From the NCBI GenBank assembly GCA_016871445.1, contig VHDH01000003.1, positions 15,299 through 79,298 on the forward strand: DNA of 64,000 nt, read 5' to 3'. Source of the stretch: Verrucomicrobiota bacterium (GTDB taxonomy: Bacteria > Verrucomicrobiota > Verrucomicrobiia > Limisphaerales > SXTU01). Under the pieces are notes generated by a model. The model saw nothing but the letters and a program-made list of their open reading frames with translations, was not told the DNA's origin and ran no database searches. Shown here in pieces: positions 4,048-58,696 of the stretch. The position numbers and the translations under genes are program-made. The stretch's first letter is position 1. Each line of letters opens with the position of its first letter.

Positions 4048-4210
4048 AATTTCTATTCCTAAGGTATACTGACGTTGCGGGCTAGGGAACCCAAGTAAAA
4101 ATATTAGCACAGCATTCTGGGGCACTAGTGGCGAAGTTTTGTTAAAATCCATTATCTGGCGAAGGGCCTTTACCCTTGCCAAGCCCGGAGGCCATTTCTA
4201 ACGTTTCGAC

Positions 4211-4612
4211 ATGGATTCGCAGTTGGCGCAATACGCGCCCGTCCTTCTCCTTCTTCTCGTGGCCCTCGCCATCGCCGGCGGCATCCTCGTGCTCTCGGAA
4301 ATTGCTGGGCGATTCTTTAATAAAAAAATAGCCGCCCGCACAACGCAGGTGAAGGATATCCCCTACGAGTGCGGTATGCTCCCCATCGGCGAAGGCAGCA
4401 CGCGCCTCTCAGTGAAGTTCTATCTCGTGGCAATGCTCTTTATCCTTTTCGATATCGAAGTCGTCTTCCTTTACCCATGGGCCATCGTTTATCGCGAGCA
4501 ACTTGCCCAAAACGCCACGCTCATTCTCGGCTCCATGGCGTCCTTCGTCGGCATTCTCTTCATCGGTTACTTCTACGCGCTCAAGAAGGGCGCGTTCGCA
4601 TGGAAAAGCTGA
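4211..4612 (+). CDS. nuoA: NADH-quinone oxidoreductase subunit A
   Basis: 133 aa with three TM segments and the conserved YECGM...KFYLVAMLFILFDIEVVFLYPWA block diagnostic of NuoA/ND3. Confidence 0.9.
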   Translation: MDSQLAQYAPVLLLLLVALAIAGGILVLSEIAGRFFNKKIAARTTQVKDIPYECGMLPIGEGSTRLSVKFYLVAMLFILFDIEVVFLYPWAIVYREQLAQNATLILGSMASFVGILFIGYFYALKKGAFAWKS

Positions 4613-4679: not shown

Positions 4680-4735
4680 TCGTCGTCAAACTTACTGTTG
4701 CTAATGACTAAACATTGCCTGCGGAGCCCCCTGCC

Positions 4736-18922: not shown

Positions 18923-20206
<1,284 letters not shown>

Positions 20207-43449: not shown

Positions 43450-44634
43450 TCACTTGAGCGGTAGAAATTTGAGGCACACTGGTGTGCCGATTTCCAGTTT
43501 AGTGCCCGTGGCGGTGAGCTTGCCGGTTGCTTGGTCTACTTTGAAGAGCGCAAGGGTGTCTGAGCCTTGACCTTCGGTGAAGAGCCATTGGCCGGTTGGG
43601 TCGAGGTTGAAGTTTCGTGGGGTCTTTACTTCCGCCGGTGCGTTCTGAACGAGGGTGATTTTCCCATCGGAGGCGACGGAAAAGACGGCGATGGTGTCGT
43701 GTCCACGATTTGAGCCGTAGAGAAACTTGCCGCTAGGGTGCGCAACTACTTCCGCCGTGCTCCAGCCCGGCTTCGGGCCGGGGCCATCGGCAGCAGGCAG
43801 CGTGGAGATGGTGTGAATTTCCCTAAGCTCACCCTTTGCTGCGTCGTAGCTAAACGCGGTCATGGTGAGGGTAATCTCGTTGATGACGTAGGCGTGCTTG
43901 CCGCTGGGGTGGAAGGTGAAGTGGCGTGGGCCGCTGCCGGGCGGCACGGTGACGAAGGCAGGGTCGTTGGCGGTGAGCGTGCCTTTGGCAGGGTCGAGCT
44001 TGTAGATGAGCACTTTGTCGAGGCCCAGGTCAGCGACGAAGGCGAAGCGGTTGTCCGGCGAGACGTTGACCGAGTGGGCGTTGGGCTGGCTCTGGCGCTT
44101 GGTGACGCTCTTGCCCTCGTGTTGAACAAAGCCGGTGTGTGGTCCGACCGATCCATCGGTCTTGATGGGAAGCGCCACGACACTGCCGCCGCCGTAATTG
44201 GCTGCCAACGCCACCCTGCCGGACTTGTCTACGGAAATGTGGCACGGACCAGCCCCAACCGAGGAGGCCTGGCTGAGAAGCTTGAGTTGCCCGTCTGATT
44301 GAATGGCAAAGGCGCTCACACCGCCGCCTTTTTTGCCATCCACGGCGGCGACTTCACCGACGGCGTAAAGAGTTTTGCCATTGGGATGAATAGCGAGAAA
44401 CGAGGGATTCACCGCCTCGCCAGCCAGTTCGGGCTTACTCGCCTCGCCCGTCGTGGCGTTAAAGGTGAAAGTGTAGATGCCCTGACTTTTCTTGCCGGTG
44501 TAGGTGCCGACATAGGCCCGAAACTGCGTCGGACCGCCTCCGCCTTTCTTCTCGGCGGCGATGACGCCAGCGGAAAGGGTGACTATCACAAGGGTGGAGA
44601 CAAAAGCACGGCTCACAAACAGGCGGAGTTTCAT
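43450..44634 (-). CDS. Lactonase, 7-bladed beta-propeller (6-phosphogluconolactonase-like), secreted
   Basis: YbhE/Pgl-family signatures: [24 protein letters not shown] and [21 protein letters not shown]. Signal peptide from ATG 44634. Confidence 0.82.
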
Positions 44635-44785
44635 ACCCGGATATAAACAGCTTTCCCCAACGGAGTACAAGCAAACCGTCGCGGCTGGTTTCAACCGAGC
44701 TTGTGAAAAAAATCACGAAAGGCTTGCCGGGTGTTCCGACAGTGCTTTACTTAAAGTGTACGTCGGCAATGCCGCGAACTCCACC

Positions 44786-45280
44786 ATGCAGACCAGTACT
44801 GATTACGGCTACAATTCTAAGATTGAGGGCGATGTTGTGGTCACGCGCGTGGATGCGGCCATCAACTGGTGCCGGAAGCAATCGCTGTGGCCGATGCCGA
44901 TGGGACTGGCGTGCTGTGCCATCGAATTAATGGCGGCGGGTGCCAGCAAGTTCGACATTTCTCGGTTCGGCTCGGAGGTCATGCGGTTCTCACCCCGCCA
45001 GTCGGATGTGATGATTGTTGCGGGCACCGTCACTTACAAAATGGCTCTAGCCGTCCGCCGTATTTACGACCAGATGCCAGAGCCGAAGTGGGTCATCGCA
45101 ATGGGCGCATGCGCCTCGACCGGCGGCATGTATCGGAGTTATGCCGTGCTCCAAGGCGTGGACAGCATTATCCCCGTGGACGTGTATGTGGCCGGCTGCC
45201 CGCCGCGTCCCGAGGCCCTGCTGGATGCGCTGATCAAGCTGCAAAATAAAGTGCAGCAAGAACCGGTGCTCGCGGCCTAG
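44786..45280 (+). CDS. nuoB: NADH-quinone oxidoreductase subunit B
   Basis: [28 protein letters not shown] and [11 protein letters not shown] carry the N2 cluster cysteines. ATG at 44786. Confidence 0.95.
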
Positions 45281-45365: not shown

Positions 45366-45944
45366 ATGGCGTCTTTCGAACTCGCCCAGCAACTGCAAGC
45401 TCGGTTTGCCGACGTGCTGACCGGCCCAGTGGAGTTTCGCGGTGAGGCGACAATAAAGTTGGCGGATGCCGCGCGCATCTCCGAGGTCTGCGCCTTTGCC
45501 AAGGATTCACTTAGTTACGACCTGTTACTCGACATTACGAGCATCGATAACTACGGCGAAGACCCGCGCTGGACGGTGGTTTATGAGCTTTACGGCACCG
45601 GCCACGGCTGCCACCTGCGCCTCAAGACCCACGTGAGCGAAGAACGCTCCGAGCTGCCCACGGTCACTTGCGTCTGGCGTGGTGCCGATTGGCACGAGCG
45701 GGAAATCTACGACATGATGGGCATCCGCTTCGTTGGGCATTCGGATTTGCGCCGCATTCTGATGTGGGACGGCTATCCGTATTTTCCGCTGCGGAAAGAC
45801 TTCCCGCTGGCCGGCAAGCCGACCGACCTGCCCGACGTGGCGTTCACCAAACCCGCGCCGCTGGAAGGCGGTCCGTTCGTGACCGCTGCCGGCGGTAAAG
45901 ACAGCATCGCTCGCGAGCCCCGCGTGCGCACGCCGGAGCAATAA
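45366..45944 (+). CDS. nuoC: NADH-quinone oxidoreductase subunit C
   Basis: The ADWHEREIYDMMGIRFVGHSDLRRIL block is diagnostic of NuoC (30-kDa subunit). Confidence 0.93.
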   Translation: MASFELAQQLQARFADVLTGPVEFRGEATIKLADAARISEVCAFAKDSLSYDLLLDITSIDNYGEDPRWTVVYELYGTGHGCHLRLKTHVSEERSELPTVTCVWRGADWHEREIYDMMGIRFVGHSDLRRILMWDGYPYFPLRKDFPLAGKPTDLPDVAFTKPAPLEGGPFVTAAGGKDSIAREPRVRTPEQ

Positions 45945-45948
45945 CTTA

Positions 45949-47262
45949 ATGGCCACTTCCCAAACCATCGAGTTTCGCGAGCCCGCTTCTCGGGTGGCCG
46001 AGGGAGCTAAGTCGCTCATGCCGACGCCCGCACTTGTGTCCTCCACCAATGGTGAAGACGGCGACTTACAGGGCGAGAAGATGGTGCTGAACATGGGGCC
46101 GTCGCATCCCTCCACGCACGGCGTCCTGCGCATCGTGCTCGAGATGGACGGTGAAATCATCACCAAGGCGACTCCGGACGTGGGTTACCTGCATCGCGGC
46201 GACGAAAAAATCGCCGAGAACATGACGTGGAACCAGTTCATCCCTTACACGGATCGGCTGGATTACCTCGCGCCGCTGGCCAACAACGTGGCTTACGCGC
46301 TTGCGGTGGAAAAACTCCTCGGCATCGATAGGCAGCTCCCGCCGCGCTGCCAATATATTCGCGTCATCTGCTGCGAGATGGCGCGCATCTCGGCGCACCT
46401 GCTTGGCCTAGGCGCGTTCGCGATGGATGTCGGAGCACTCACGGTTTTTCTCCACACGTTCACAGAGCGGGAAAAAATTTACTCGCTCATCGAACGGCTG
46501 ACCGGCGCGCGGTTCACGACTAGCTACACACGCATCGGCGGTTTGTCGCGCGACCTGCCGCCGGGTTGGGCGGCGGACTTGCGGAAGTTTTGCGACGAGG
46601 TGTTGGTGAACTTCGACGAGTCCGAAACGCTGCTTACGCGCAACCGTATCTTCGTGGACCGCACCCGGAACGTGGGCGTCATCACAGCGGCAGATGCAAT
46701 TAATTTCGGTCTCACCGGCCCGAACTTGCGCGGCAGCGGCGTGGATTACGACGTGCGCAAGGCTCATCCATATCTCGTCTATGGCGAGTTGGATTTCGAG
46801 GTGCCCGTCGGCTCCGTTGGCGACAGCTACGACCGTTATCTTGTTCGTTTGGAGGAAATGCGTCAAAGCGTGCGCCTCATCCGCCAGTGCCTGACCAAGC
46901 TGCCCGGCGGCTTAGACAACGCGTCGAACGAGCCCATTTCCGTCCCCGATGGCAAAATCACGCTCCCGCCAAAGGCCAAGGTGCTTTCCAGCATGGAAGA
47001 GTTGATCCACCAGTTCATGCTGGTAACGCAGGGCATCAATGCGCCGGCGGGCGAAGTCTATTTCGGCGCGGAGAACCCGAAAGGCGAGTTGGGCTTCTAC
47101 ATCAACTCGCGCGGTGGCGGCACGCCGTATCGGTTGAAGATTCGCGCGCCATCCTTCTGTAACCTGAGCATCCTGCCGCACGTGCTGCCCGGCCACATGA
47201 TGAGCGACGTGGTGAGCATCCTCGGCTCAATTGATTTTGTGATGGGAGAATGTGACCGATGA
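45949..47262 (+). CDS. nuoD: NADH-quinone oxidoreductase subunit D
   Basis: LNMGPSHPSTHGVLR, the C-terminal IDFVMGECDR, and 49-kDa subunit colinearity. About 20 extra N-terminal residues, so the start is somewhat uncertain. Confidence 0.93.
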   Translation: MATSQTIEFREPASRVAEGAKSLMPTPALVSSTNGEDGDLQGEKMVLNMGPSHPSTHGVLRIVLEMDGEIITKATPDVGYLHRGDEKIAENMTWNQFIPYTDRLDYLAPLANNVAYALAVEKLLGIDRQLPPRCQYIRVICCEMARISAHLLGLGAFAMDVGALTVFLHTFTEREKIYSLIERLTGARFTTSYTRIGGLSRDLPPGWAADLRKFCDEVLVNFDESETLLTRNRIFVDRTRNVGVITAADAINFGLTGPNLRGSGVDYDVRKAHPYLVYGELDFEVPVGSVGDSYDRYLVRLEEMRQSVRLIRQCLTKLPGGLDNASNEPISVPDGKITLPPKAKVLSSMEELIHQFMLVTQGINAPAGEVYFGAENPKGELGFYINSRGGGTPYRLKIRAPSFCNLSILPHVLPGHMMSDVVSILGSIDFVMGECDR

Positions 47263-47750
47263 GTTTCGCCGTCCCCGCCACCCTCGAAGCCCAGCTCGAC
47301 GAGTTGGTGACGCATTATCCGCAGAAGCGGAGCGCGTCGCTCATGTTTCTGCACGCATTGCAGGAGCACTTTGGCTACATCTCGCGCGACGCCGTGGAGT
47401 GGACCGCTCGCAAGCTTGGCCTCCAGCCCATCAACGTTTACGAATTGGTCACGTTCTACCCGATGTTCCGTCAGGAACCGCTCGGGAAGACGCACATCAA
47501 GGTCTGCCGCACCTTGAGTTGCGCGCTCGCCGGCAGCAGCGAACTGCGCACACACTTCTGCTCGAAGCTCGGCCTTGACGCTCACAAACACGCACCGCAG
47601 ACCACGCCGGACGGGAAATTCACCGTCGAGTTCGTCGAGTGCCTCGCTGACTGTGGCAACGCTCCCGTGGTGTTGCTCAACGAGGACTTGCTGCCTAAGG
47701 TCACGCCTGCGCGAGCGGATGAAATCGTCGCGAAGGGGAAGTTGAAATGA
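47259..47750 (+). CDS. nuoE: NADH-quinone oxidoreductase subunit E
   Basis: 2Fe-2S ligand pattern C-x4-C (CRTLSC) ... C-x3-C (CLADC) and the YPQKRSASL motif. The start overlaps the nuoD stop (ATGA). Confidence 0.93.
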   Translation: MSFAVPATLEAQLDELVTHYPQKRSASLMFLHALQEHFGYISRDAVEWTARKLGLQPINVYELVTFYPMFRQEPLGKTHIKVCRTLSCALAGSSELRTHFCSKLGLDAHKHAPQTTPDGKFTVEFVECLADCGNAPVVLLNEDLLPKVTPARADEIVAKGKLK

Positions 47751-47755
47751 AACCT

Positions 47756-47829
47756 TGGTTGCCCGACATGGATTCGAACCATGACAAACAGATTCAGAGA
47801 CTGTTGTGCTACCATTACACCATCGGGCA
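47756..47829 (-). tRNA. tRNA-Gln (anticodon CUG), CCA encoded
   Basis: The reverse complement folds by hand into a cloverleaf: acceptor UGCCCGA/UCGGGCA (U1-A72, typical of bacterial tRNA-Gln), D arm GUGU-AAUGGUA-GCAC, and anticodon stem-loop ACAGU-CUCUGAA-UCUGU. It continues with a 4-nt variable loop, T arm CAUGG-UUCGAAU-CCAUG, and A-CCA. Total 74 nt. Confidence 0.9.
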
Positions 47830-47845
47830 GTTCGTAGCGCCGGGC

Positions 47846-47873
47846 AAAGTAGGGATTCCAAACTGAGAGTCAA
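47846..47873 (-). promoter_or_regulatory. Candidate sigma-70-type promoter for the tRNA-Gln gene
   Basis: The minus strand reads TTGACT (47873-47868), a 16-nt spacer, then TACTTT (47851-47846), about 17 nt upstream of the tRNA 5' end. It overlaps the region just upstream of the nuoF start. Sequence match only. Confidence 0.3.
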
Positions 47874-47879
47874 GCCGCC

Positions 47880-49271
47880 ATGCCGCAGGAACACAGGCTC
47901 ATTTTAAAGCACGCTGATCAGTCTGGTTATACGCCGGACTTGGAGTGCTATTTGCGCCACGGCGGTTATGAATCGCTTAAGAAAGTTCTCGCTCTTGCGC
48001 CCCGTGACTTGCCCGAAGGTAAGAAACTCTCCCCACAGGAACAGGTCCGCGAGGACGTGAAAACCTCCGGTCTGCGAGGGCGCGGCGGCGCGGGTTTCAG
48101 CGCAGGCATCAAGTGGTCGCTCGTAGACCGGAAGTCTGGCAAGCCCATCTATCTCATCTGCAACGCCGACGAATCCGAGCCCGGCACGTTTAAGGACCGC
48201 CAAATCATTCACAAAGACCCACACCAGCTCCTCGAGGGGATGATCATCTCCTGCTGGGCGAACGACGTGAAGCTCGCCTACATCTACATTCGTGGCGAGA
48301 TGCCGCACGGCGCGAAGCTGCTCAACACAGCCATCGCTGAGGCGCGCGCGAAGAACTTCCTCGGCAAGAACATCCTTGGCTCGGGCTACGATCTGGAGAT
48401 TTATGTCCATCGCGGTGCGGGGTCTTATATTTGCGGCGAGGAAACCGGGCTCATCGAGTCGCTGGAGGGCAAGCGCGCCTATCCGCGCATCAAACCGCCT
48501 TACTTTCCCGCGGTGCTGGGCCTCTACATGTGCCCGACCATCGTCAACAACGTCGAGACCCTGTGCGCAGTGAAGCACATTGTCGCGATGGGTGCGTCAG
48601 AATACGCCAAGCTCGGCACACCTAATAACACCGGCACCCGCATTGTCAGCCTCAGCGGCGACGTCAGGCGCCCCGGCTACTTTGAAATCGAGGTCGGCAA
48701 GGTCACCATCGGCGAACTCATCAACGATCCCGCGTTCGGCGGCGGCTTGCGCGATGGCCGGAAATTGAAAGCCATCATTCCCGGCGGCTCCTCCTCGAAA
48801 ATTCTCAAGGCCGGCGAGACCTTCAAACTCAACCGCAAGGGCTCCGACGGCCAGATGGCCAAAGTGGACGTGCCGCTCCTCGACCTGCCCTACGATTTCG
48901 ATTCCCTCATGGCTGCTGGCACCATGTCCGGCTCCGGCGCGATCATCGTGCTGGACGACACCCGTAACATCGTGGATTGCCTCGCCAACATCGCCGAGTT
49001 TTACGCTCACGAGAGCTGCGGTCAGTGCACGCCCTGTCGCGAAGGCTCGCTCTGGATGAGCAAGGCCCTCCACCGCCTCACCCACGGCCACGGCCGCAAG
49101 GCCGACGCGGACTACCTGTTGCACATCGCGCAGAACATCCAAGGTCGCACCATCTGCGCCTTTGGCGAAGCCTGCGCATGGCCGGTCCTGAGCTACGTGA
49201 ACAAGTTCAAAGATGACTTCGAGGCCAAAGGCGCGGGCGACGAAGCCAAAGCCGCCGTCACGAAACACTGA
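47880..49271 (+). CDS. nuoF: NADH-quinone oxidoreductase subunit F
   Basis: GLRGRGGAGF (FMN site), ADESEPGTFKDR, and ESCGQCTPCREG (N3 4Fe-4S). Confidence 0.96.
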   Translation: MPQEHRLILKHADQSGYTPDLECYLRHGGYESLKKVLALAPRDLPEGKKLSPQEQVREDVKTSGLRGRGGAGFSAGIKWSLVDRKSGKPIYLICNADESEPGTFKDRQIIHKDPHQLLEGMIISCWANDVKLAYIYIRGEMPHGAKLLNTAIAEARAKNFLGKNILGSGYDLEIYVHRGAGSYICGEETGLIESLEGKRAYPRIKPPYFPAVLGLYMCPTIVNNVETLCAVKHIVAMGASEYAKLGTPNNTGTRIVSLSGDVRRPGYFEIEVGKVTIGELINDPAFGGGLRDGRKLKAIIPGGSSSKILKAGETFKLNRKGSDGQMAKVDVPLLDLPYDFDSLMAAGTMSGSGAIIVLDDTRNIVDCLANIAEFYAHESCGQCTPCREGSLWMSKALHRLTHGHGRKADADYLLHIAQNIQGRTICAFGEACAWPVLSYVNKFKDDFEAKGAGDEAKAAVTKH

Positions 49272-49276
49272 TCTCC

Positions 49277-51022
49277 ATGTCCGCCCCCGCGACAACTGAA
49301 GCTAAACTTGCGGCCGCCACTGCGCCCGCTTCCCCGCCGCTGGCTGAGAAAATTAAAATCAAAGTTGACGGCCGCGAGGTCGAGGTGCCGAAGATGATGC
49401 CCAACTGGCAGGGCAAGCTGGAGCCAACGACAATGCTCCAAGCCTGTCAAATCGCCGGGCACGAGGTGCCGCATTATTGCTATCACCCGAAACTCCCCGT
49501 CGCCGGCAACTGCCGCATGTGCCTCGTCGAGTTTGGTACGCCGCAGATGGGCCCGGACCGCAAGCCCGTGCTCAACCAGGACGGCACGCCCAAGGTCGCG
49601 AAGGCAGTGCTGCCCTACGAACCTAGCACGTGCCGTGGAGCTATCGCGTGCGCCACGCCTATCTCACCGGGCATGGAAATTTATCCCAACTCAGCCGCCA
49701 CGAAACAGATGCGCGAGGCCGTGCTCGAATCGCTGCTCATCAACCACCCGCTCGATTGCTCCATTTGCGACCAAGCCGGCGAGTGTAAGCTCCAAGAATA
49801 TTCCGTTGAGCACGGTCAGTCGCAAAGCAGCTTCGTCGAGGCAAAGGTTCACAAGCCCAAGGCCGTTGACCTCGGCCCACGCATCGTGCTCGACGACGAG
49901 CGCTGCATCCTATGCACGCGGTGCATTCGGTTCACAAAAGACATCGCCGGTGATGACGCGCTCGGCATCGTTAATCGCGGCAGTTACAATACCATCGCCG
50001 CTTGGAAGCCCGGCGCGTTCGACAACAATTACACCCTCAACACCGTGGATATCTGCCCGGTGGGCGCGCTCACCTCTAAAGATTTCCGCTTCCAGATGCG
50101 TGTTTGGTTTATGAAGGAGACTAAGTCCCTTTGCACAAGTTGCGGCACCGGCTGCAACATCATCGTCGGCTCGCGCGAGGAAAAGATATACCGTTATGAG
50201 CCGCGTCAGAACGACGCCGTGAACGCCTGCTGGATGTGCGACCACGGCCGTCTCAACTACAAGTGGATCGGGCGCGGGGACAGATTAAAGAAGTGCGGGG
50301 TGCGAGGTGCGGGGTGCGGAGTGACGGATTCCGACTGGTCGACCGTCCTCAAAGGAGTTTCCGAAACACTAGCGAAGGCGCCCCACGGCTCGACCGCCAT
50401 CGTCGCCAGCGCGCGCCAGACGAATGAGGAACTCTTCCTCCTGAAGAAACTCGCGACGAAGCTCGGCGCGCTGACCGACTCGGTGCCGCGCACCGGGCAG
50501 GGCGACCACCTGCTCGTGGACGAGGACAAGAACCCGAACAGCAACGGCGCGCGGCTCACGGGCATCGCGTTCACCGAGATGGGCATCAACCTGCCGAAGA
50601 TCGCCGAGGGGATTGCTGCGGGCCGCATCAAGACGCTCATCGTCTTCGGCGAGGACGTGACGCGCCACGGGCTCGACCCCTCATTGCTCGCGCGCCTCGA
50701 CACGCTCATCGTCAGCGACATCCTGCCGAATCGCACCACGGCGCTCGCGCACTACCTGTTGCCCGGCTGCGCGCACGCGGAGAAGCGCGGCACGTTCACG
50801 AACACCAAGGGCCGAGTGCAAAAGTTCATGAAAGCTGTCGAAGCCCCGGGCGACGCGCGGCCCGAGTGGGAGTTTCTGCATGAGTTAATGCACAACGTCA
50901 CCGGCCAAAATGGCTTCTCGACCATCGAAGGGCTTTTTAATCAGATGGCGGCGGAAGTCCCTGGCTTCGCCGGCTTGGAGTGGGCGAAACTCGGTGAAAC
51001 CGGCGTGACGGTGCAAATCTAG
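49277..51022 (+). CDS. nuoG: NADH-quinone oxidoreductase subunit G (short form)
   Basis: N-terminal 2Fe-2S and 4Fe-4S cysteine patterns (CRMCLVE, HPLDCSICDQAGECKLQ, CILCTRCIRF, CPVGAL), then a molybdopterin-oxidoreductase-like domain. Confidence 0.93.
   Translation: MSAPATTEAKLAAATAPASPPLAEKIKIKVDGREVEVPKMMPNWQGKLEPTTMLQACQIAGHEVPHYCYHPKLPVAGNCRMCLVEFGTPQMGPDRKPVLNQDGTPKVAKAVLPYEPSTCRGAIACATPISPGMEIYPNSAATKQMREAVLESLLINHPLDCSICDQAGECKLQEYSVEHGQSQSSFVEAKVHKPKAVDLGPRIVLDDERCILCTRCIRFTKDIAGDDALGIVNRGSYNTIAAWKPGAFDNNYTLNTVDICPVGALTSKDFRFQMRVWFMKETKSLCTSCGTGCNIIVGSREEKIYRYEPRQNDAVNACWMCDHGRLNYKWIGRGDRLKKCGVRGAGCGVTDSDWSTVLKGVSETLAKAPHGSTAIVASARQTNEELFLLKKLATKLGALTDSVPRTGQGDHLLVDEDKNPNSNGARLTGIAFTEMGINLPKIAEGIAAGRIKTLIVFGEDVTRHGLDPSLLARLDTLIVSDILPNRTTALAHYLLPGCAHAEKRGTFTNTKGRVQKFMKAVEAPGDARPEWEFLHELMHNVTGQNGFSTIEGLFNQMAAEVPGFAGLEWAKLGETGVTVQI
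50290..50331 (+). repeat. Heptanucleotide tandem array inside nuoG (GAAGTGC GGGGTGC GAGGTGC GGGGTGC GGAGTGA CGGATTC)
   Basis: Six 7-nt units (42 nt, 14 codons) translated as KCGVRGAGCGVTDS. The array ends in the 8-mer GGATTCCG (50326-50333), which also brackets the first pheT array. Confidence 0.8.
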
Positions 51023-51028
51023 TTCTCC

Positions 51029-52165
51029 ATGGCCTGGCTTGATTCTTTGACTCCGCAAGCGCAATTCGCGTTCTTCACAATGTTGAAGATTGCGTGCGTG
51101 TTGGGACCGTTGCTCACGCTTGTCGCCTACGCGGTGCTGGCGGAGCGCAAGGTCTCAGCGCTCATTCAAGACCGCGTGGGGCCGAACCGCGTGAGCCTGC
51201 CGCTCATCGGAGGGATCCCGGTCATCGGGCCGTTCCTCACCAAGCTCGGCTTCTGGCATCCGCTGGTGGACGGCGTGAAAAGCTTTATCAAGGAGGACTT
51301 CACGCCCGCGCATGTGCGCAAGATTTACTTCTGGCTCGCCCCAGCCATCGCGCTTGTGCCGGCGTTCCTCGTCATCGCGGTCATTCCGTTCGGCTCCACG
51401 CTGGGCAGCCAAAAGATGGTCATCGCGGACCTCAACGTCGGCATCCTCTACACTTTCGGCATCGTGTCGCTCGGCGTGTATGGCATCGTGCTGGCGGGCT
51501 ATGCGGCGAACTCAAAATTTCCCTTCCTCGGCGGCATTCGATCGAGTGCGCAGATGATTTCCTACGAGCTGGCGATGGGCATGAGCGTGGTGCCGGTGTT
51601 CCTCGTCGTGGGTGATTTGAACCTCAGCAAGATTATCGAACATCAGGCACACAATGGCTGGAACGTTTTCCCCTTGTTCGGCGGCGGATTCAGCTTGCAA
51701 ACACTCTTGCTCGTCCCGTGTGGCATGCTGTCTTTCACCATCTTTTTCGTCGCCGCCTTCGCGGAGACAAACCGGCTGCCTTTCGACCTCCCGGAGTCGG
51801 AGAGCGAGCTAGTGGGCGGCTATCATACGGAATATAGCTCGATGAAGTTCGGCATGTTCTTTATCGGCGAATACGCGAACATGTTTGCCGGTGCCGCCAT
51901 GATGACCACGCTCTTCTTCGGCGGTTGGACGCTGCCTTTCTTCGGCCTCGATCAAGCGGCAGACTCGGTGTGGAAGGGTCTGCTGCACATCGGCATCTTC
52001 ATGGCGAAGATGTTCGCGTTCATGGGCATCTTCATTTGGGTGCGTTGGATGCTCCCGCGCTTCCGCTACGACCAACTGATGGATCTTGGTTGGCGACGGC
52101 TGATCCCGTTAGCTTTGGCGAACATAATTTTGACCGCCGCCGTGCTGGCGCTGACCGACCGTTGA
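51029..52165 (+). CDS. nuoH: NADH-quinone oxidoreductase subunit H
   Basis: Multi-TM protein with ERKVSALIQDRVGPNRV and ETNRLPFDLPESESELVGGYHTEYS motifs. Confidence 0.95.
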   Translation: MAWLDSLTPQAQFAFFTMLKIACVLGPLLTLVAYAVLAERKVSALIQDRVGPNRVSLPLIGGIPVIGPFLTKLGFWHPLVDGVKSFIKEDFTPAHVRKIYFWLAPAIALVPAFLVIAVIPFGSTLGSQKMVIADLNVGILYTFGIVSLGVYGIVLAGYAANSKFPFLGGIRSSAQMISYELAMGMSVVPVFLVVGDLNLSKIIEHQAHNGWNVFPLFGGGFSLQTLLLVPCGMLSFTIFFVAAFAETNRLPFDLPESESELVGGYHTEYSSMKFGMFFIGEYANMFAGAAMMTTLFFGGWTLPFFGLDQAADSVWKGLLHIGIFMAKMFAFMGIFIWVRWMLPRFRYDQLMDLGWRRLIPLALANIILTAAVLALTDR

Positions 52166-52172
52166 CCGCCAC

Positions 52173-52736
52173 GTGACCATGATTGTCAAACGCAACGAGC
52201 TTACTTGGTTTGAGCGACTCTATCTACCGGCGCTAGTCGGCGGGTTAAAGGTCACCGCACGCCATTTTTTTAATAACATCACGGGTAAAACCAAAGTCAC
52301 GCAGCAGTATCCCGAGGAGCCGACCAAGGTGCTGCCCGGCTATCGCGGCGCGCCGTATCTCGTGCGCGACCAGGACGGCGCGACCAAGTGCGTCTCCTGC
52401 CAACTTTGCGAATTCATCTGCCCGCCCAAAGCCATCCGCATGACGCCGCCCGGCGCAGCGGGTCAACCCGCTGACCGACCCAATGCCGAGAAAATGCCCA
52501 AGGAGTTTGAGATTAACATGCTCCGCTGCATCTTTTGTGGGCTCTGCCAGGAAGTTTGCCCAGAAGAGGCTATCTTCCTTAAAAGCGACTTCTCCCTGAC
52601 TGGCCTTGCGCGCGGCGAAATGGTTTACAACAAGGAGAAGCTCCTCGCCCTTGGTGGCACGCACGGTGGCGTGCAGAAGTGGAAGCACAAACTGGAGGAG
52701 GCAAAGGAGCAGGAGACATTCCCAGTGAAGGTTTGA
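52173..52736 (+). CDS. nuoI: NADH-quinone oxidoreductase subunit I
   Basis: Two ferredoxin-type 4Fe-4S motifs: CVSCQLCEFICP and CIFCGLCQEVCP. GTG at 52173 or ATG at 52179. Confidence 0.93.
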   Translation: MTMIVKRNELTWFERLYLPALVGGLKVTARHFFNNITGKTKVTQQYPEEPTKVLPGYRGAPYLVRDQDGATKCVSCQLCEFICPPKAIRMTPPGAAGQPADRPNAEKMPKEFEINMLRCIFCGLCQEVCPEEAIFLKSDFSLTGLARGEMVYNKEKLLALGGTHGGVQKWKHKLEEAKEQETFPVKV

Positions 52737-52747
52737 TGACGCGTACG

Positions 52748-52850
52748 CCAAGCCCCAAACCCCATGACCAAAGTCCCAAGCCACTCGAAACATCTAGTCT
52801 CATTGGGCTATGATTCGTCTGCGGCCCCGCAGAACTTTGGAGTTTGGGGC
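52748..52850. repeat. Inverted heptamer-periodic arrays in the nuoI-nuoJ spacer
   Basis: The left arm is CAAGCCC CAAACCC CATGACC AAAGTCC CAAGCCA (52749-52783). The right arm ACTTTGG AGTTTGG GGC (52834-52850) is its imperfect reverse complement (AGCCCCAAAC / GTTTGGGGCT). A small hairpin TCTGCG-gccc-CGCAGA lies between them at 52818-52833. Confidence 0.6.
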
Positions 52851-52858
52851 TATTTGAG

Positions 52859-53371
52859 ATGATCTTGCCTGACGCTCTTTTCTACCTCTTCGCCTTCCTG
52901 ACGTTGCTGTTCGGCGCGTTGGTGGTGGCCAATCCGTTCAGCCGCAACCCGGTCACGAGCGCGATGTTCCTTGTGCTCACCATCTGCGCGATGGCTGGAC
53001 TCTTCGTGCTCCTCAACGCCTTTTTCCTCGCGGCGGTGCAAATCCTCGTCTATGCGGGCGCGGTGATGGTGCTCTTCCTCTTCGTCATCATGCTGCTGGA
53101 TCTTAAGGAAGAGCAGCGCCGGAAAATCAACCTCTTCGGCATCGTCACCGGCTCAGGCGCGGTGTTAGGCTTGGGCTTCCTGCTCACGCGCACCATCTGG
53201 GGTGGCGACTTCTCGCAGACCGCCACGCCCAAGGTCATCGGCGACACCAAGGCGCTGGGCCTCGAACTGTTCACCAAGGGCCAGTTCCTCCTCCCCTTTG
53301 AAATCGTCTCCGTCCTCCTGCTCGTGGCGATGGTGGGCGTAATTCTCCTAAGCAAGAAAGAGCTGAAATGA
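52859..53371 (+). CDS. nuoJ: NADH-quinone oxidoreductase subunit J
   Basis: Five-TM protein with [10 protein letters not shown] and C-terminal [16 protein letters not shown] typical of NuoJ. ATG at 52859 is preferred over TTG at 52844. Confidence 0.9.
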
Positions 53372-53673
53372 ACGTTGGCCTCGAACATTACCTCACCGTC
53401 AGCGCGATGCTTTTCTGCCTCGGGTTGCTGGGGGTCATTCTGCGGCGCAATGTCCTCGTCATCTACATGTCGCTGGAGTTGATGCTCAACGCCGCCAACC
53501 TCGCGCTCGTCGCTTTTTCGCGCTTCAACGACAATCTCACAGGCCAGACGATGGTCTTCTTTATCATCACCGTCGCAGCGGCCGAAGTCGCCGTCGGCCT
53601 CGCGCTAATCGTCGCGCTCTACCGCAAGCGCCAGTCTGCGCACGTGGAGGACCTGACCTCGCTGAAACTCTGA
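53368..53673 (+). CDS. nuoK: NADH-quinone oxidoreductase subunit K
   Basis: 101-aa, three-TM protein with [10 protein letters not shown] and [13 protein letters not shown] motifs. The start overlaps the nuoJ stop (ATGA). Confidence 0.94.
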
Positions 53674-53674
53674 C

Positions 53675-55645
53675 ATGGAACCCACTTCGAGCATTGCCGG
53701 AATGTCCGCGCTGTTGGTGCTGCTGCTGCCCCTGTTGGCCGCGGCCGGCATCGCCCTGGTCTGGAAAAAGGACGAGGAATTCAGCGCTCAACTTTCCATC
53801 GGCGCGATTGCCCTCGGCTTCGTCCTGAGCCTTGGCCTGTTTGCCTTCACACCGGCCAAACCGCAGGAATTTGCCTTCAATTGGCTGGCCGTCGGCGACC
53901 TGAAAATCTCCTTCGGCTTCCTGCTCGACCCGCTTTCCAAGCTCATGCTCCTCGTCGTGACGGGCGTCGGGCTGATGATTCACATCTACTCGCGCGGCTA
54001 CCTGCACGGCGACCGCTCGTTTAGCCGCTACTTCGCCAGCCTGAGCCTCTTCACCTTCTCGATGCTCGGCATCGTGCTCGCGAATAACCTCTTCATGATG
54101 TTCGTGTTTTGGGAACTGGTCGGCGTGAGCAGCTACCTGCTCATCGGCTTCTGGTTCGAGAAGCACTCCGCCGCTGACGCCGCGAAAAAAGCCTTTCTTA
54201 CCAATCGTGTGGGCGACTTCGGCTTCATCCTCGGCATCCTCCTCACGTGGCTCGCGCTCGGCTCATTGAACTTCACCGAGTTGGCCAGCGCGCTTGATGG
54301 CAAGGCGCTTCCCTTCGCCAGCCTCGTCGAGCCGCTCAACCGTCTCGTCGGCAGCACGAATTGGTGGACCGTCCACCCGAACGTCCTGGCCACGCTCGTC
54401 GGCCTGCTGCTCTTCATGGGCGCGATGGGCAAGTCCGCGCAGTTCCCGCTCCACGTCTGGCTGCCGGACGCGATGGAAGGTCCCACGCCCGTCAGCGCGC
54501 TGATTCACGCCGCCACGATGGTCGCCGCCGGCGTGTTCATGCTCTGCCGCATCTTCTTCCTGCTCGAAATCCCCGGCTCGCACGCGTTGGAGTTCATCGC
54601 GTGGACGGGCGGCGTCACCGCGCTGCTGGCCGCGCTCATGGCGCTACAACAAAACGACATCAAGCGCATCCTCGCCTACTCCACGCTCTCGCAGCTCGGC
54701 TACATGGTGATGGCCGTGGGCCTGCACGCGCCCGGCCCGGCGATGTTTCATCTCACCACGCATGCGGCTTTCAAGGCGCTGCTTTTCCTCGGGGCTGGCT
54801 CGGTGATTCTGGCCTGCCACCACGAGCAGAACATCTGGAAGATGGGCGGCCTGCACGACGCGATGCCGCGCACGTGGTGGACGTTCCGCTGGGGCACGCT
54901 CGCGCTCTGCGGCGTTTGGCCCTTCGCAGGCTTTTTCAGCAAGGACGCCATTCTCGCCAGCGCGCTGGAACACAAGAACATTCCCCTCTTCGTCCTCGGC
55001 GTATTCGTCGCAGGCCTTACGACCTTCTACATGAGCCGCCTCGTCCTAGTCGCCTTTTGCGGCAACGCCCGCAGCGAAGCAGCCAGCCACGCGCACGAAT
55101 CGCCCGGCGTGATGACCTGGCCGCTCGTTGCGCTCGCCTTGCCCACACTGCTGGCCGGAGCCATCGGCATCGACGCCTTCATCGCCAAGGCCCTGCCCAG
55201 CGAGCACCCGTCGCCCAACGAGGGTTTACTGAATAACCTCTTCGCGCCGTTCAACCACAACATCCTTGCTGCGGGTTTCGGCCTGCTTGCGGTGGTCGCT
55301 GGTTGGCAACTCGCCCGCACGCTTTACACGAACGCGATGAGCGATCCGTTGCCGGAGAAAATTGGCGTCTTCGCAAAAATGGCCCGCGATCGCTTCTACT
55401 TCGATGAGCTTTACGCGTGGCTCATCCGCGTCACGCAGGAGACCCTCGCGCGGTTGGCGGACTGGGTAGACCGCTGGATTATCGCCGGCTTCGTCGTGCG
55501 CGGCACGCACGGCACCACCGAGCTGGTCGGCCGCGTCCTCCGCCTTGTGCAGACCGGCAGCCTTCAAACCTACGCCTTCCTCTTCGCCGCTGGCGTTGTG
55601 CTAGTGCTGGCGTGGCAGCTCCTCGGCACTTCGCCTACCCACTGA
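53675..55645 (+). CDS. nuoL: NADH-quinone oxidoreductase subunit L
   Basis: Antiporter-like subunit with WELVGVSSYLLIGFW, KSAQFPLHVWLPDAMEGPTPVSALIHAATMV, and the C-terminal lateral-helix region. Confidence 0.95.
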   Translation: MEPTSSIAGMSALLVLLLPLLAAAGIALVWKKDEEFSAQLSIGAIALGFVLSLGLFAFTPAKPQEFAFNWLAVGDLKISFGFLLDPLSKLMLLVVTGVGLMIHIYSRGYLHGDRSFSRYFASLSLFTFSMLGIVLANNLFMMFVFWELVGVSSYLLIGFWFEKHSAADAAKKAFLTNRVGDFGFILGILLTWLALGSLNFTELASALDGKALPFASLVEPLNRLVGSTNWWTVHPNVLATLVGLLLFMGAMGKSAQFPLHVWLPDAMEGPTPVSALIHAATMVAAGVFMLCRIFFLLEIPGSHALEFIAWTGGVTALLAALMALQQNDIKRILAYSTLSQLGYMVMAVGLHAPGPAMFHLTTHAAFKALLFLGAGSVILACHHEQNIWKMGGLHDAMPRTWWTFRWGTLALCGVWPFAGFFSKDAILASALEHKNIPLFVLGVFVAGLTTFYMSRLVLVAFCGNARSEAASHAHESPGVMTWPLVALALPTLLAGAIGIDAFIAKALPSEHPSPNEGLLNNLFAPFNHNILAAGFGLLAVVAGWQLARTLYTNAMSDPLPEKIGVFAKMARDRFYFDELYAWLIRVTQETLARLADWVDRWIIAGFVVRGTHGTTELVGRVLRLVQTGSLQTYAFLFAAGVVLVLAWQLLGTSPTH

Positions 55646-55647
55646 CC

Positions 55648-57222
55648 ATGTCGCTGCTCTCCGCCATTTTCCTGCTCCCGCTGCTGGCCGCGCTCGTGGT
55701 CTTGTGCATTCCACGCAATTACAAGTTTGTCATCCGCCTCATCTCGCTCGGGGCAACGTTTGCTGCGATGCTGTTAGCCCTCGCGCTGTTCGCCAGGTAC
55801 GACGCGGCCCCAGTCGAGAACGGCTTCAAGTTCGTCGAGCGACACGCGTGGGTGAGCGTCTCGGCACTGAAGCTCGACATCGGTTGGCACCTAGGCGTGG
55901 ACGGCATCAACCTCGGCCTCATCGTAATGGGCGCCATCGTGGCTTTCGCCGCCGCGTGCGTGTCGCGCGAAATCAAGCGCTTGGAGAAGGAGTATTACAC
56001 CCTGCTGCTCGTGATGACCGGCGGCATCCTCGGCGCGTTCGCCTCGCTGAACCTGTTTTTCTTCTACTTCTTCCATGAACTGGCATTGGTGCCGACCTTC
56101 ATCATGATTGGCGTCTGGGGCCATGGCGAAAACCGCAACTACGCCACTTTCAAAATCACCATTTACCTCAGCCTTGGCGCGCTCCTCGCGCTGGCCGGCC
56201 TAATCGCGCTTTATCTCCAGTCCGGCGCCAACACTTTCGACCTCGTCGAGTTGACGAAGAAGGTGAAGTCCCGCCCGCTACCGCTCGCTGCGCAGTCGTT
56301 CATCTTTCCGCTGCTCCTCTTCGGGTTTGGCATCCTCGTTTCGCTTTGGCCGTTTCATACTTGGGCGCCGCTGGGCTACGGCTCCGCGCCGACCGCGACC
56401 GCGATGCTGCACGCGGGCGTGCTGAAGAAGTTCGGCCTCTACGGCCTGCTGCGCGTAGGCATCCCGCTCATGCCCGATGGCGCGGGGGCGTGGCTGGAAA
56501 TCCTCGCCTTGCTCTGCCTCGGCAACATCGTTTACTGCGGCCTCGTCGCGATGCGGCAGAAGGATTTGAACCTGCTCATCGGCAACTCCAGCGTCGCGCA
56601 CATGGGCTTTATCTTCCTTGGCATAGCCAGCCTGAACCTCGTGGGCGTGACCGGCGCAGTGGTCGTGATGGTTGCACACGGATTCCTCGCAGCGCTGACG
56701 TTTGGCCTGAGTGGTGCGCTACGTGAAAAAACCGGCACGCTCGAACTGGAAAAGCTCGGCGGTCTGCTGCGGCAAATTCCTTTCCTTGGGGCTGCACTGG
56801 TAATGGCCATGCTAGCGGGCTGCGGCTTGCCGGGCTTCGCGAACTTCGTTGGCGAGGCCATGGTGCTCTTCGGCTCCTGGCGCGTCTTCCCGCTGGTGAC
56901 GACAATTGCCGCGTGGGGTGCGCTCATCATCGGTGCCGTCTACATGCTGCGCGCCATACGCAACATTCTGCACGGACCGGGGAAGCCTGAGTGGGCTGAG
57001 CTCCAAGACGCCAGCGCATGGGTCAAGGTGCCGTTTGTGCTCCTTCTCGGTGCGCTCTTGTTGCTCGGAATCTGGCCGCGTCTGCTAATCGATAAGATTC
57101 AACCCAGTGTCGTCCCCATCATCGCAATGGCCGAGGCGAAGTCCGCCGACAAAGCCGTGCGGCCCAGCGACTTGAAGAAGGGCGCCGAAGACGCCAAGCA
57201 GCGCGCCGTGCGGCCGCGATAA
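55648..57222 (+). CDS. nuoM: NADH-quinone oxidoreductase subunit M
   Basis: ATG at 55648 (MSLLSAIFLLPLL), 2 nt after the nuoL stop. Antiporter-like motifs FFHELALVPTFIMIGVWG and WPFHTWAP. Confidence 0.94.
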   Translation: MSLLSAIFLLPLLAALVVLCIPRNYKFVIRLISLGATFAAMLLALALFARYDAAPVENGFKFVERHAWVSVSALKLDIGWHLGVDGINLGLIVMGAIVAFAAACVSREIKRLEKEYYTLLLVMTGGILGAFASLNLFFFYFFHELALVPTFIMIGVWGHGENRNYATFKITIYLSLGALLALAGLIALYLQSGANTFDLVELTKKVKSRPLPLAAQSFIFPLLLFGFGILVSLWPFHTWAPLGYGSAPTATAMLHAGVLKKFGLYGLLRVGIPLMPDGAGAWLEILALLCLGNIVYCGLVAMRQKDLNLLIGNSSVAHMGFIFLGIASLNLVGVTGAVVVMVAHGFLAALTFGLSGALREKTGTLELEKLGGLLRQIPFLGAALVMAMLAGCGLPGFANFVGEAMVLFGSWRVFPLVTTIAAWGALIIGAVYMLRAIRNILHGPGKPEWAELQDASAWVKVPFVLLLGALLLLGIWPRLLIDKIQPSVVPIIAMAEAKSADKAVRPSDLKKGAEDAKQRAVRPR

Positions 57223-57235
57223 CTTTGACCGCCGA

Positions 57236-58696
57236 ATGAACGCCTCTCTCATTGTGCTTGAACTAGCTGTGGTCTGCCTCGGCTTGATCCTGCTTGCGCA
57301 AGACTTATACACGCCAGCCAAAGAACGGCGCACGCTGGGCTATGGTGCGGTGCTCGGTGTTGCCGTCATATTACTATACAGTTTTTTCGCGTTTGACGGC
57401 AACGAGACGCTCTACGCCTTTGGCAACGCCTACGTCCTAGACGGACTCGCACTATGGTTTAAGCGCTTTTTCCTCCTTGCTGCGTTGCTCGTGCTGATAA
57501 TGGCCGCCGAGTACAGCGATCGCTTTGAGGCTGGGCAGTCCGAGTTCTTCGCGCTCATCTTGTTTGCGCTCGCCGGAATGATGTTCGCCGCTTCAGCGAA
57601 TGACTTTACTCTCCTTTTTGTCTCGTTGGAGCTGATCACCGTAACTTTTTACGTTTTGGTCAGCTTCCTGCGTCGGCGGGTTGAGTCACTTGAGGCAGGG
57701 GTAAAGTATCTCATCCTAGGCGCGCTGTCGTCCGGCTTCCTCGTCTATGGCATCGCGCTCGTCTTCGGTGTCAGCGGCACGCTGAACTTTAATGAGTTGG
57801 CAGATAAACTTACTAACCACCCCGCACTTGGCCACAAGTCGTTACTCTTCACCGGCCTCTTGCTTGTGTTTGTGGGCCTTGGTTTCAAAATGGCTATCGT
57901 GCCATTTCAGATCTGGGCACCCGACGTGTATCAAGGCTCGCCCACGCCCACGACGGCTTTTCTATCCGTCGGCTCAAAGGCGGCGGGCGTTGTGCTGCTC
58001 ATGCGCCTGCTCGGCACCGCGATTCCCGATCTCGCTTTCAAGCTGGAAAAACTTCTTATGACGATGGCTGGGCTGTCGATTCTTTACGGTAGCCTCTGTG
58101 CTGTCCCGCAGCGCAACCTCAAGCGTCTACTCGGTTACAGCAGCATCGCCAGCGCGGGCTACTTGCTGCTGGGATTCGCCGTGATGAACAAGTCGGGCTC
58201 GTCCGCCGTGCTTTACTATCTCGCCGGCTATCTCTTCACTGCGCTCGCGGCATTTTCGGTCATCGCCATCGTCGTGCGAGAGGCCGGCGCGGAGGATATC
58301 GACTCGCTGGCCGGCCTCGCGCACAGGTCGCCATTGCTGGCCGCCACGCTGACGCTCGCGATGGTTTCGCTCGCCGGCATTCCGCCGCTCGCCGGCTTCT
58401 TTGGGAAATTCCTTCTGCTTAAGGCCGTCGTCGCCGAGGGCATTCGCTGGTCCGCATACTACTGGCTTTTTGCCGTTGCCGTCGCAGGCGTCCTCGTCTC
58501 GCTTTACTACTACTTCAACGTGGTAAGGGCGATTTACTGGAGTAAAAATGTTTCAGATTTCAAGCCGATTTCCCTCTCGTTGCCCACCAAGTTCGCCCTT
58601 GCCATTTGCATCGTCGGCATGCTTTGGCTCGGCCTTTACCCTGGCAACGCGCTTGAACTCGCGGTGGAAGCGGTAAAGTCGCTGAAGCTAGTGTGA
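57236..58696 (+). CDS. nuoN: NADH-quinone oxidoreductase subunit N
   Basis: The antiporter-like subunit with SLELITVTFYVL, KMAIVPFQIWAPDVYQGSPTP and YSSIASAGY. It is the last gene of the cluster. Confidence 0.94.
   Translation: MNASLIVLELAVVCLGLILLAQDLYTPAKERRTLGYGAVLGVAVILLYSFFAFDGNETLYAFGNAYVLDGLALWFKRFFLLAALLVLIMAAEYSDRFEAGQSEFFALILFALAGMMFAASANDFTLLFVSLELITVTFYVLVSFLRRRVESLEAGVKYLILGALSSGFLVYGIALVFGVSGTLNFNELADKLTNHPALGHKSLLFTGLLLVFVGLGFKMAIVPFQIWAPDVYQGSPTPTTAFLSVGSKAAGVVLLMRLLGTAIPDLAFKLEKLLMTMAGLSILYGSLCAVPQRNLKRLLGYSSIASAGYLLLGFAVMNKSGSSAVLYYLAGYLFTALAAFSVIAIVVREAGAEDIDSLAGLAHRSPLLAATLTLAMVSLAGIPPLAGFFGKFLLLKAVVAEGIRWSAYYWLFAVAVAGVLVSLYYYFNVVRAIYWSKNVSDFKPISLSLPTKFALAICIVGMLWLGLYPGNALELAVEAVKSLKLV

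Follow-up and report, generated by a model that had tools for sequence, protein, structure and literature searches.

Why would a gene for a transfer RNA (tRNA) lie in reverse orientation inside a cluster of respiratory genes, and what becomes of the transcription of that cluster? The question is raised by a stretch of 64,000 nucleotides (nt) from a Verrucomicrobiota bacterium of the order Limisphaerales (contig VHDH01000003.1, assembly GCA_016871445.1; referred to below as the window), where the gap between nuoE and nuoF, two neighbouring genes of respiratory complex I, holds a gene for tRNA-Gln(CUG) on the strand opposite to the nuo genes. The answer put forward here, and regarded as probable, is that a functional tRNA-Gln gene was inserted in reverse in an ancestor of the lineage and now lies where two transcription units, nuoBCDE and nuoF-N, meet. 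The evidence is the conservation of the tRNA, of its promoter and of its spacing to nuoF among related species, together with the variability of the nuoE side.

The tRNA-Gln gene at the nuoE-nuoF junction

The gap between the TGA stop of nuoE (47748-47750) and the ATG start of nuoF at 47880 spans 47751-47879, or 129 nt. ARAGORN places there a tRNA-Gln with anticodon CTG, which is the sole tRNA it finds in the window, and the sole Rfam match in the window falls on the same sequence: RF00005 at 47759-47829 on the minus strand, covering model positions 1-71 of 71, with 64.6 bits against a gathering score of 29 (E = 9.4e-12). A first-pass annotation of this DNA had described a complete 74-nt minus-strand tRNA-Gln in the gap, 5 nt after the nuoE stop, and had proposed a covariance-model search as the check. 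The gene, its length and the 5-nt spacing (47751-47755) all agree with what was found, and the covariance model accepts the tRNA.

The details are those of a regular tRNA-Gln. The CUG anticodon sits in a 7-nt loop, the CCA end is encoded (47758-47756 on the minus strand), and the molecule starts UGCCCG and ends CGGGCA-A-CCA, which gives a first pair U1-A72 and a discriminator base A73. The U1-A72 pair is a Gln identity element and is typical of bacterial tRNA-Gln. CAG, the codon read by this anticodon, makes up 55 of the 89 Gln codons in the nuo genes counted in the window. From its sequence the gene is predicted to be functional and independently transcribed, and its product to be expressed and charged.

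Conservation of the arrangement in related species

Is this a peculiarity of one genome? One genome per GTDB species was scanned with the window NuoF, which yielded 80 loci (L numbers below) with 79-94% NuoF identity. In 75 of them ARAGORN reports a tRNA-Gln(CTG) on the minus strand, a short way upstream of nuoF. Contig ends account for three of the others: the tRNA is cut in L036, L057 keeps the promoter and the first tRNA bases, and L053 aligns with the long-gap variant L058, so that its tRNA would fall past the end of the contig. For L022 and L075 the upstream DNA is too short for a verdict. The minus-strand tRNA is present upstream of nuoF in every one of the 77 informative loci.

The window and the 75 loci give 76 tRNA sequences, 25 of them distinct, and all keep the cloverleaf. 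Among the 25, compensatory double changes occur in 10 of the 22 stem pairs, and non-standard combinations are confined to one pair (30-38). This pattern argues for a working tRNA under purifying selection and not for a relic.

Comparison of the nuoE-nuoF junction across relatives had been suggested with the first-pass annotation, which also held that the observation would lose most of its interest if the arrangement were widespread and already annotated. Widespread it is, being shared by all informative loci. As to the second part, a tRNA at this junction would be annotated by standard pipelines, and literature searches for a tRNA inside a nuo cluster found no relevant paper.

The titles of the 80 records are mostly Limisphaerales, Pedosphaera or Verrucomicrobiota, and a number bear unrelated names. 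Verrucomicrobial nuoF-tRNA loci under titles of unrelated taxa are L002, L005, L006, L010, L022, L024, L033, L038, L044, L045, L055, L059, L061, L063, L066 and L068-L070; the titles include uncultured Klebsiella sp., Akkermansia muciniphila, Chitinophaga pinensis, Cyanophyceae, Bifidobacteriaceae and Saccharimonadales. The organism names of these metagenome-assembled genome records look unreliable.

The promoter of the tRNA gene

What drives the tRNA gene? In the window, 50 nt separate its 5' end from the nuoF ATG. The DNA upstream of the 5' end was aligned in tRNA orientation for the window and the 75 loci (n = 76), and the TTGACT/TACTTT promoter-like pair that had been noticed overlapping the nuoF upstream region proves to be present on the minus strand and conserved in place and form in all 76. 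The -35 element is TTGACT in 75 loci and TTGACC in one; all 76 have a spacer of exactly 16 nt, followed by a -10 element that fits TAnnnT. From the end of the -10 to the mature 5' end of the tRNA there are 11-18 nt, most often 16. The 8 nt after the -10 contain 74% G+C, against 48% in the spacer. The promoter sequences are distinct in 74 of the 76 loci, so that this conservation is not due to near-identical genomes.

Within the window CTTGACT occurs a single time, both strands counted, and the full promoter motif twice: at the tRNA and upstream of purA. For more than 10 kilobases (kb) to the right of the tRNA there is no minus-strand gene that could supply another promoter. A generic scan of 46800-48600 for the Escherichia coli consensus, which required at least 4 of 6 matches in both hexamers and a spacer of 16-18 nt, reported no promoter. 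The -35 matches the E. coli consensus at 5 of 6 positions, and the scan misses the tRNA promoter because TACTTT agrees with TATAAT at just 3 of 6. The call thus rests on phylogenetic footprinting and not on consensus matching. By the conservation of its architecture the tRNA gene is shown to have what can be predicted as a sigma-70-type promoter of its own, with a putative start site near 47839 ± 2 on the minus strand that would leave a leader of about 10 nt. Stable-RNA promoters under stringent control, such as those of E. coli rrn and tRNA genes, typically have a GC-rich discriminator. By this resemblance the tRNA promoter may be subject to growth-rate or stringent control, and its architecture suggests high expression of the gene.

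The purA-side match, at 20327-20235 on the minus strand (TTGACA-N17-TAGCGT, upstream of purA at 18923-20194 on the same strand), is the only other strict promoter-like match. About 30 nt past it lies a textbook hairpin with a T-run (CCCCGAATTTACAATTTGGGG TTTTTTTT), and purA starts some 40 nt further on. This hairpin, which has no Rfam match, could be the terminator of the upstream DEAD-box helicase gene or a purA leader or attenuator.

Two unequal sides: spacing and inserted sequences

Which neighbour does the tRNA gene belong with? nuoE and nuoF were placed in each locus by tblastn. On the nuoF side, 46-63 nt separate the tRNA 5' end from the ATG in 60 of 76 loci, 75-97 nt in nine and 156-464 nt in seven. 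The -35 element lies only 2-19 nt from the nuoF ATG in the same number of loci (60 of 76), including species with NuoE identity down to about 64%. On the nuoE side, 73 junctions were measured (the window and 72 loci), and the interval that separates the nuoE stop from the tRNA 3' end is scattered: 2-11 nt in 27, 26-102 nt in 20, 144-364 nt in 13, 573-767 nt in 11, 1750 nt in one and an overlap of 22 nt (-22) in one. In L056 and L061 nuoE is absent from the 2.6-3.9 kb upstream of nuoF, and the upstream neighbour in L056 is a large minus-strand open reading frame (ORF). With tight spacing on one side and variable spacing on the other, the conserved unit is the divergent tRNA-Gln/nuoF pair and not the nuoE-tRNA junction.

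The overlap is found in L052, where the nuoE frame seems to run 22 nt into the opposite-strand tRNA gene before its stop (3875-3896). Barring an artefact of assembly or frame, a protein gene would here truly overlap a tRNA gene on the antisense strand.

The large gaps between nuoE and the tRNA hold extra plus-strand genes, and unrelated genes are inserted in at least 11 loci. Recurrent among them in some relatives is a two-ORF cassette (Table 1). Its first ORF encodes a conserved protein of about 65 amino acids (MKTSLKDWxKVY...ERWxMN...LRSxGLWGRS) and overlaps the start of the second, which encodes 190-212 amino acids with a nucleotidyltransferase-like motif (GM..A..LQGV...T.DVDLW.DLP); L055 has the small ORF by itself. 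Neither has a Pfam or NCBIfam match, and the cassette looks like a small mobile toxin-antitoxin-like module of no matched family. In L010 the gap contains, at 1242-2966 on the plus strand, an adenine-specific DNA methyltransferase (PF01555, N6_N4_Mtase) followed by an ORF of 239 amino acids without family match; these two are probably a restriction-modification pair. L066 has an ORF with a weak JAB match in this gap.

Do these inserts mean that the tRNA is itself a mobile-element relic or an attachment site, or else a non-functional pseudo-tRNA? tRNA 3' ends are classical integration sites, and it is indeed the 3' end that adjoins the variable cargo in relatives, be it the two-ORF cassette, the methyltransferase pair or the JAB-like ORF. 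Against integration, no direct repeat of the tRNA 3' end was found around the inserts in L008, L010, L013, L066 and L080, and no integrase is present among the ORFs of the nuoE-tRNA gaps, which yield only N6_N4_Mtase, the weak JAB match or no match. A pseudo-tRNA is at odds with the 64.6-bit score, the support from covariation, the encoded CCA and the conserved promoter. This explanation is largely refuted and retains very little probability.

On the other side of the tRNA, gaps to nuoF of at least 156 nt are filled with palindromic repeat elements. Palindromic repeats lie between the tRNA promoter and nuoF in L050, L053, L057, L058, L066, L071, L073 and L079, examples being GGGGAGAGGGCCGGGGTGAGGG, which occurs with its complement, and CCCACGGTTnnAACCGTGGG. 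In L059 their place is taken by short repeats in tandem, and the gap of L079 also has a small ORF. The palindromes of the long gaps are probably elements of the miniature inverted-repeat transposable element or repetitive extragenic palindromic type, inserted between the -35 and the nuoF start.

One transcription unit or two?

The first-pass annotation posed two alternatives, a cluster split into two units or head-on transcription through an antisense-tRNA segment. This is the right pair to weigh, and the comparative data favour the split. They do so because the tRNA keeps its link with nuoF while the nuoE side varies and at times contains inserted genes, because L056 and L061 are without nuoE, and because nuoA is detached by 40 kb (see below). 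In L056 and L061 the absence of an upstream nuoE implies that nuoF-N is autonomous. Comparative gene order thus suggests that nuoBCDE and nuoF-N are separate transcription units.

How might such a junction work? The tRNA would be transcribed leftwards from its own sigma-70-type promoter, starting about 10 nt before the mature 5' end; RNase P would remove the leader, and the 3' end would be trimmed to the encoded CCA. The tRNA gene would mark the border between nuoBCDE and nuoF-N, with the solo nuoA as a third unit. With a 5-nt gap and no terminator there, a short overlap of convergent transcripts is unavoidable, so that nuoBCDE transcripts are expected to enter the tRNA gene for at least part of its length, just as tRNA precursors would extend into the nuoE 3' end. 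These convergent transcripts would probably end by Rho-dependent or non-canonical termination. As the tRNA promoter fills the 50-nt spacer, a promoter for nuoF-N should lie within the tRNA gene or to its left.

Several observations weigh against two separate units. A terminator scan of 46800-48600 found no terminator-like site at or next to the junction on either strand; its matches were three on the plus strand, inside nuoD or the 5' part of nuoE, and one on the minus strand, inside nuoF. When the nuoE-tRNA gaps of 20-272 nt in relatives were folded, neither a hairpin with a T-run nor a shared terminator appeared, and canonical terminators of that kind do exist elsewhere in the genome. All 76 loci were also searched for a plus-strand nuoF promoter, over an interval that begins 150-400 nt to the left of the tRNA and ends at the nuoF ATG; the lineage motif, a relaxed motif and a criterion of at least 9 of 12 matches to the E. 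coli consensus all gave nothing. Finally, the extra genes that relatives have between nuoE and the tRNA are all oriented like the nuo genes, which fits a read-through operon too.

An extended -10-like sequence, TGcTACCAT, inside the antisense D-arm was considered as a nuoF promoter and rejected; it is part of the conserved tRNA sequence and carries no independent signal.

The alternative is therefore a single read-through nuoB-N messenger RNA (mRNA) from the nuoB promoter, carrying a 74-nt antisense-tRNA segment, with head-on collisions of polymerases at the tRNA promoter. The terminator, promoter and orientation results just given all speak for it, as does the outgroup, by which nuoD, nuoE and nuoF were probably contiguous in the ancestor. 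Other results do not fit so well: nuoF-N of L056 and L061 lacks an upstream nuoE and can possibly be expressed on its own, nuoA is already a separate gene 40 kb off, read as separately expressed, and foreign gene insertions of 0.6-1.75 kb, such as the methyltransferase pair, are tolerated between nuoE and the tRNA. The missing nuoF promoter is weak evidence, because ordinary promoters here rarely match the strict motif (only two matches in 64 kb). A read-through mRNA is possible, at perhaps one chance in four, and the split into two units is preferred.

Could the layout instead have been selected as a regulatory device? Firing of the tRNA promoter might tune the level of nuoF-N, or the ratio of nuoBCDE to nuoF-N, by transcriptional interference, or the antisense-tRNA segment might be where RNase P, RNase Z or RNase III processes the transcript. 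The closeness of the -35 to the nuoF ATG in most loci is in keeping with this idea, and so is the GC-rich discriminator, by analogy with stringently controlled promoters of E. coli. Yet in 16 of 76 loci the tRNA stands 75-464 nt from the nuoF ATG, so tight overlap is not essential, and the nine longest-gap sequences hold palindromic repeats, one of them also an ORF. Moreover, the plus-strand antisense-tRNA RNA folds no more stably than shuffled sequences (z = -0.31), and the conserved adjacency is explicable by simple inheritance. A selected device of this kind is considered unlikely.

Origin of the arrangement

When did the tRNA gene arrive at the junction? A first search for NuoF homologues was saturated by relatives of at least 82% identity; representatives clustered at 50% identity reached an outgroup. 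The nearest other 50%-identity NuoF cluster, P0122, is 62% identical and belongs to Verrucomicrobiales, with close relatives named Luteolibacter, Haloferula and Akkermansiaceae. Among 80 Verrucomicrobiales metagenome loci around P0122-like nuoF, none has a tRNA between nuoE and nuoF, and nuoD, nuoE and nuoF are contiguous in many. The tRNA at the junction is thus a derived trait of the Limisphaerales/Pedosphaera-like lineage. The sampled NuoF identities are 79-94% in the lineage and 62% for P0122, a sampling that does not pin the insertion to one node. The most likely origin, judged from these comparisons, is a lineage-specific insertion: the tRNA gene with its promoter would have entered a once-contiguous nuoE-nuoF junction in reverse, in a Limisphaerales/Pedosphaera-like ancestor, and would have been inherited since.

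The outgroup loci (L081-L160) are themselves diverse. In many of the Luteolibacter- or Haloferula-like loci nuoF lacks a nuoE in the 3 kb upstream or a nuoG downstream, and in others nuoE and nuoF are 0.7-0.8 kb apart. Fragmentation of nuo seems to be common across the class Verrucomicrobiia.

The nuo genes of the window

The coordinates are collected in Table 1. Complex I genes occupy at least three places in the window: nuoA, nuoBCDE and nuoF-N. The minus-strand lactonase gene directly upstream shows that the nuo block starts with nuoB, and the solo nuoA is flanked by genes for a fatty-acid desaturase (2890-4182, minus strand) and a phosphoglucomutase (4715-6175, plus strand). Genes within each block mostly overlap or are no more than about 13 nt apart, the exceptions being nuoB-nuoC (85 nt) and nuoI-nuoJ (107 nt). 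With a detached nuoA, the lactonase gene and the minus-strand tRNA, the window does not have the single contiguous nuoA-N arrangement of the E. coli type.

Table 1. Positions of the features discussed, in the window or, where an L number is given, in the locus named
Feature	Position	Strand	Basis and remarks
nuoA, solo, ~40 kb from nuoB	4211-4612	+	Pfam Oxidored_q4 PF00507, 4.2e-30; tblastn
Lactonase gene, directly upstream of nuoB	43450-44634	-	Pfam Lactonase, hit given for 43450-44694
nuoB	44787-45280	+	NCBIfam; probable ATG at 44787
nuoC	45366-45944	+	NCBIfam
nuoD	45949-47262	+	NCBIfam
nuoE, last gene of upstream nuoBCDE block	47259-47750	+	NCBIfam nuoE_fam, 4.7e-40
Spacer of nuoE stop and tRNA 3' end, 5 nt	47751-47755		Window sequence; too short for a terminator on either strand
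tRNA-Gln(CUG), 74 nt with encoded CCA	47756-47829	-	ARAGORN and Rfam RF00005
GC-rich discriminator and short 5' leader, GCCCGGCGCTACGAAC	47845-47830	-	Comparative alignment
-10 element TACTTT (lineage pattern TAnnnT), 16 nt past the -35	47851-47846	-	Comparative alignment
-35 element TTGACT (CTTGACT with base 47874), 6 nt from the nuoF ATG of the other strand	47873-47868	-	Comparative alignment
nuoF, first gene of downstream nuoF-N block, divergent from the tRNA	47880-49271	+	NCBIfam nuoF_fam, 2.5e-160
nuoG	49277-51022	+	NCBIfam
nuoH	51029-52165	+	NCBIfam
nuoI	52173-52736	+	NCBIfam
nuoJ	52844-53371	+	NCBIfam
nuoK	53368-53673	+	ORF list; assigned by position and size only
nuoL	53675-55645	+	ORF list; assigned by position and size only
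nuoM	ORF 55417-57222	+	Pfam Proton_antipo_M; true start probably near 55650
nuoN	57236-58696	+	Pfam Proton_antipo_M
Two-ORF cassette, L008	2005-2640	+	
Two-ORF cassette, L013	3194-3832	+	
Two-ORF cassette, L021	3231-3830	+	
Two-ORF cassette, L030	2604-3194	+	
Two-ORF cassette, L060	3245-3871	+	
Two-ORF cassette, L070	3252-3842	+	
Two-ORF cassette, L076	292-864	+	
Two-ORF cassette, L078	3217-3828	+	
Two-ORF cassette, L080	3203-3793	+	
Small ORF of the cassette by itself, L055	3571-3849	+	

The first-pass annotation had started from the view that a nuo cluster is, as a rule, one unbroken operon; this is too strong. A 2025 survey found a mix of split and single-cluster complex I in most clades, with single clusters dominating only in Actinomycetota and in Gamma- and Betaproteobacteria (PMC12361115), and many of the Verrucomicrobiales nuo loci described above are fragmented.

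Significance

A tRNA-Gln(CUG) gene divergent from nuoF provides a clean lineage marker for Limisphaerales/Pedosphaera-like verrucomicrobia. Its promoter (TTGACT, 16 nt, TAnnnT, GC-rich discriminator) is a phylogenetically footprinted example of a strong promoter for a phylum whose promoters are, to our knowledge, essentially uncharacterised. The locus also calls for caution in operon prediction and in the modelling of complex I, as adjacent nuo genes need not form one operon in these common soil and freshwater bacteria. Were complex I regulated by this layout, the locus would offer a compact natural example of promoter interference; none of the present results calls for such a role.

Comparison with known systems

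How does the locus compare with what is known? The tRNA resembles the bacterial elongator tRNA-Gln of RF00005 in its cloverleaf, CUG anticodon, U1-A72 pair and encoded CCA. The promoter is like those of E. coli tRNA and ribosomal RNA genes in its consensus -35, its TAnnnT -10 and its GC-rich discriminator, with the difference that the -10 is a poor fit to the E. coli consensus (3 of 6 positions). Unlike the usual tRNA or ribosomal RNA operon, the gene is single and lies on the opposite strand within a respiratory gene cluster.

The division into nuoA, nuoBCDE and nuoF-N is comparable to the split nuo clusters of PMC12361115. It differs from them in that the blocks stay adjacent and the break point holds a conserved antisense tRNA, 5 nt and 50 nt from its neighbours; the survey makes no mention of tRNA genes at break points (0 occurrences of 'tRNA').

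The arrangement also brings to mind cases of convergent transcription. Convergent or overlapping units with transcriptional interference are known from phage and bacterial systems, and here nuoE and the tRNA converge 5 nt apart without terminators, the tRNA promoter facing the oncoming unit. In this locus any interference is conjectural, and the effect may be negligible.

Vertebrate mitochondria have a light-strand tRNA-Gln between ND1 and ND2, and their transcripts are the subject of the tRNA punctuation model. The window is alike in having an opposite-strand tRNA-Gln among complex I genes, which would place an antisense-tRNA segment in any long sense transcript. Its neighbours are nuoE and nuoF, not the homologues nuoH and nuoN, so this is an analogy only, and an insertion confined to a single verrucomicrobial lineage has no evolutionary tie to the mitochondrial gene. 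We know of no demonstration of processing at antisense tRNAs in bacteria. Should antisense-tRNA cleavage or interference set the level of nuoF-N, the locus would be a bacterial counterpart of mitochondrial tRNA punctuation. Taken by itself, the object is an ordinary tRNA-Gln with a promoter of the stable-RNA type, and only its conserved place and orientation are unusual; it is a lineage-specific feature of gene order and not a new kind of system.

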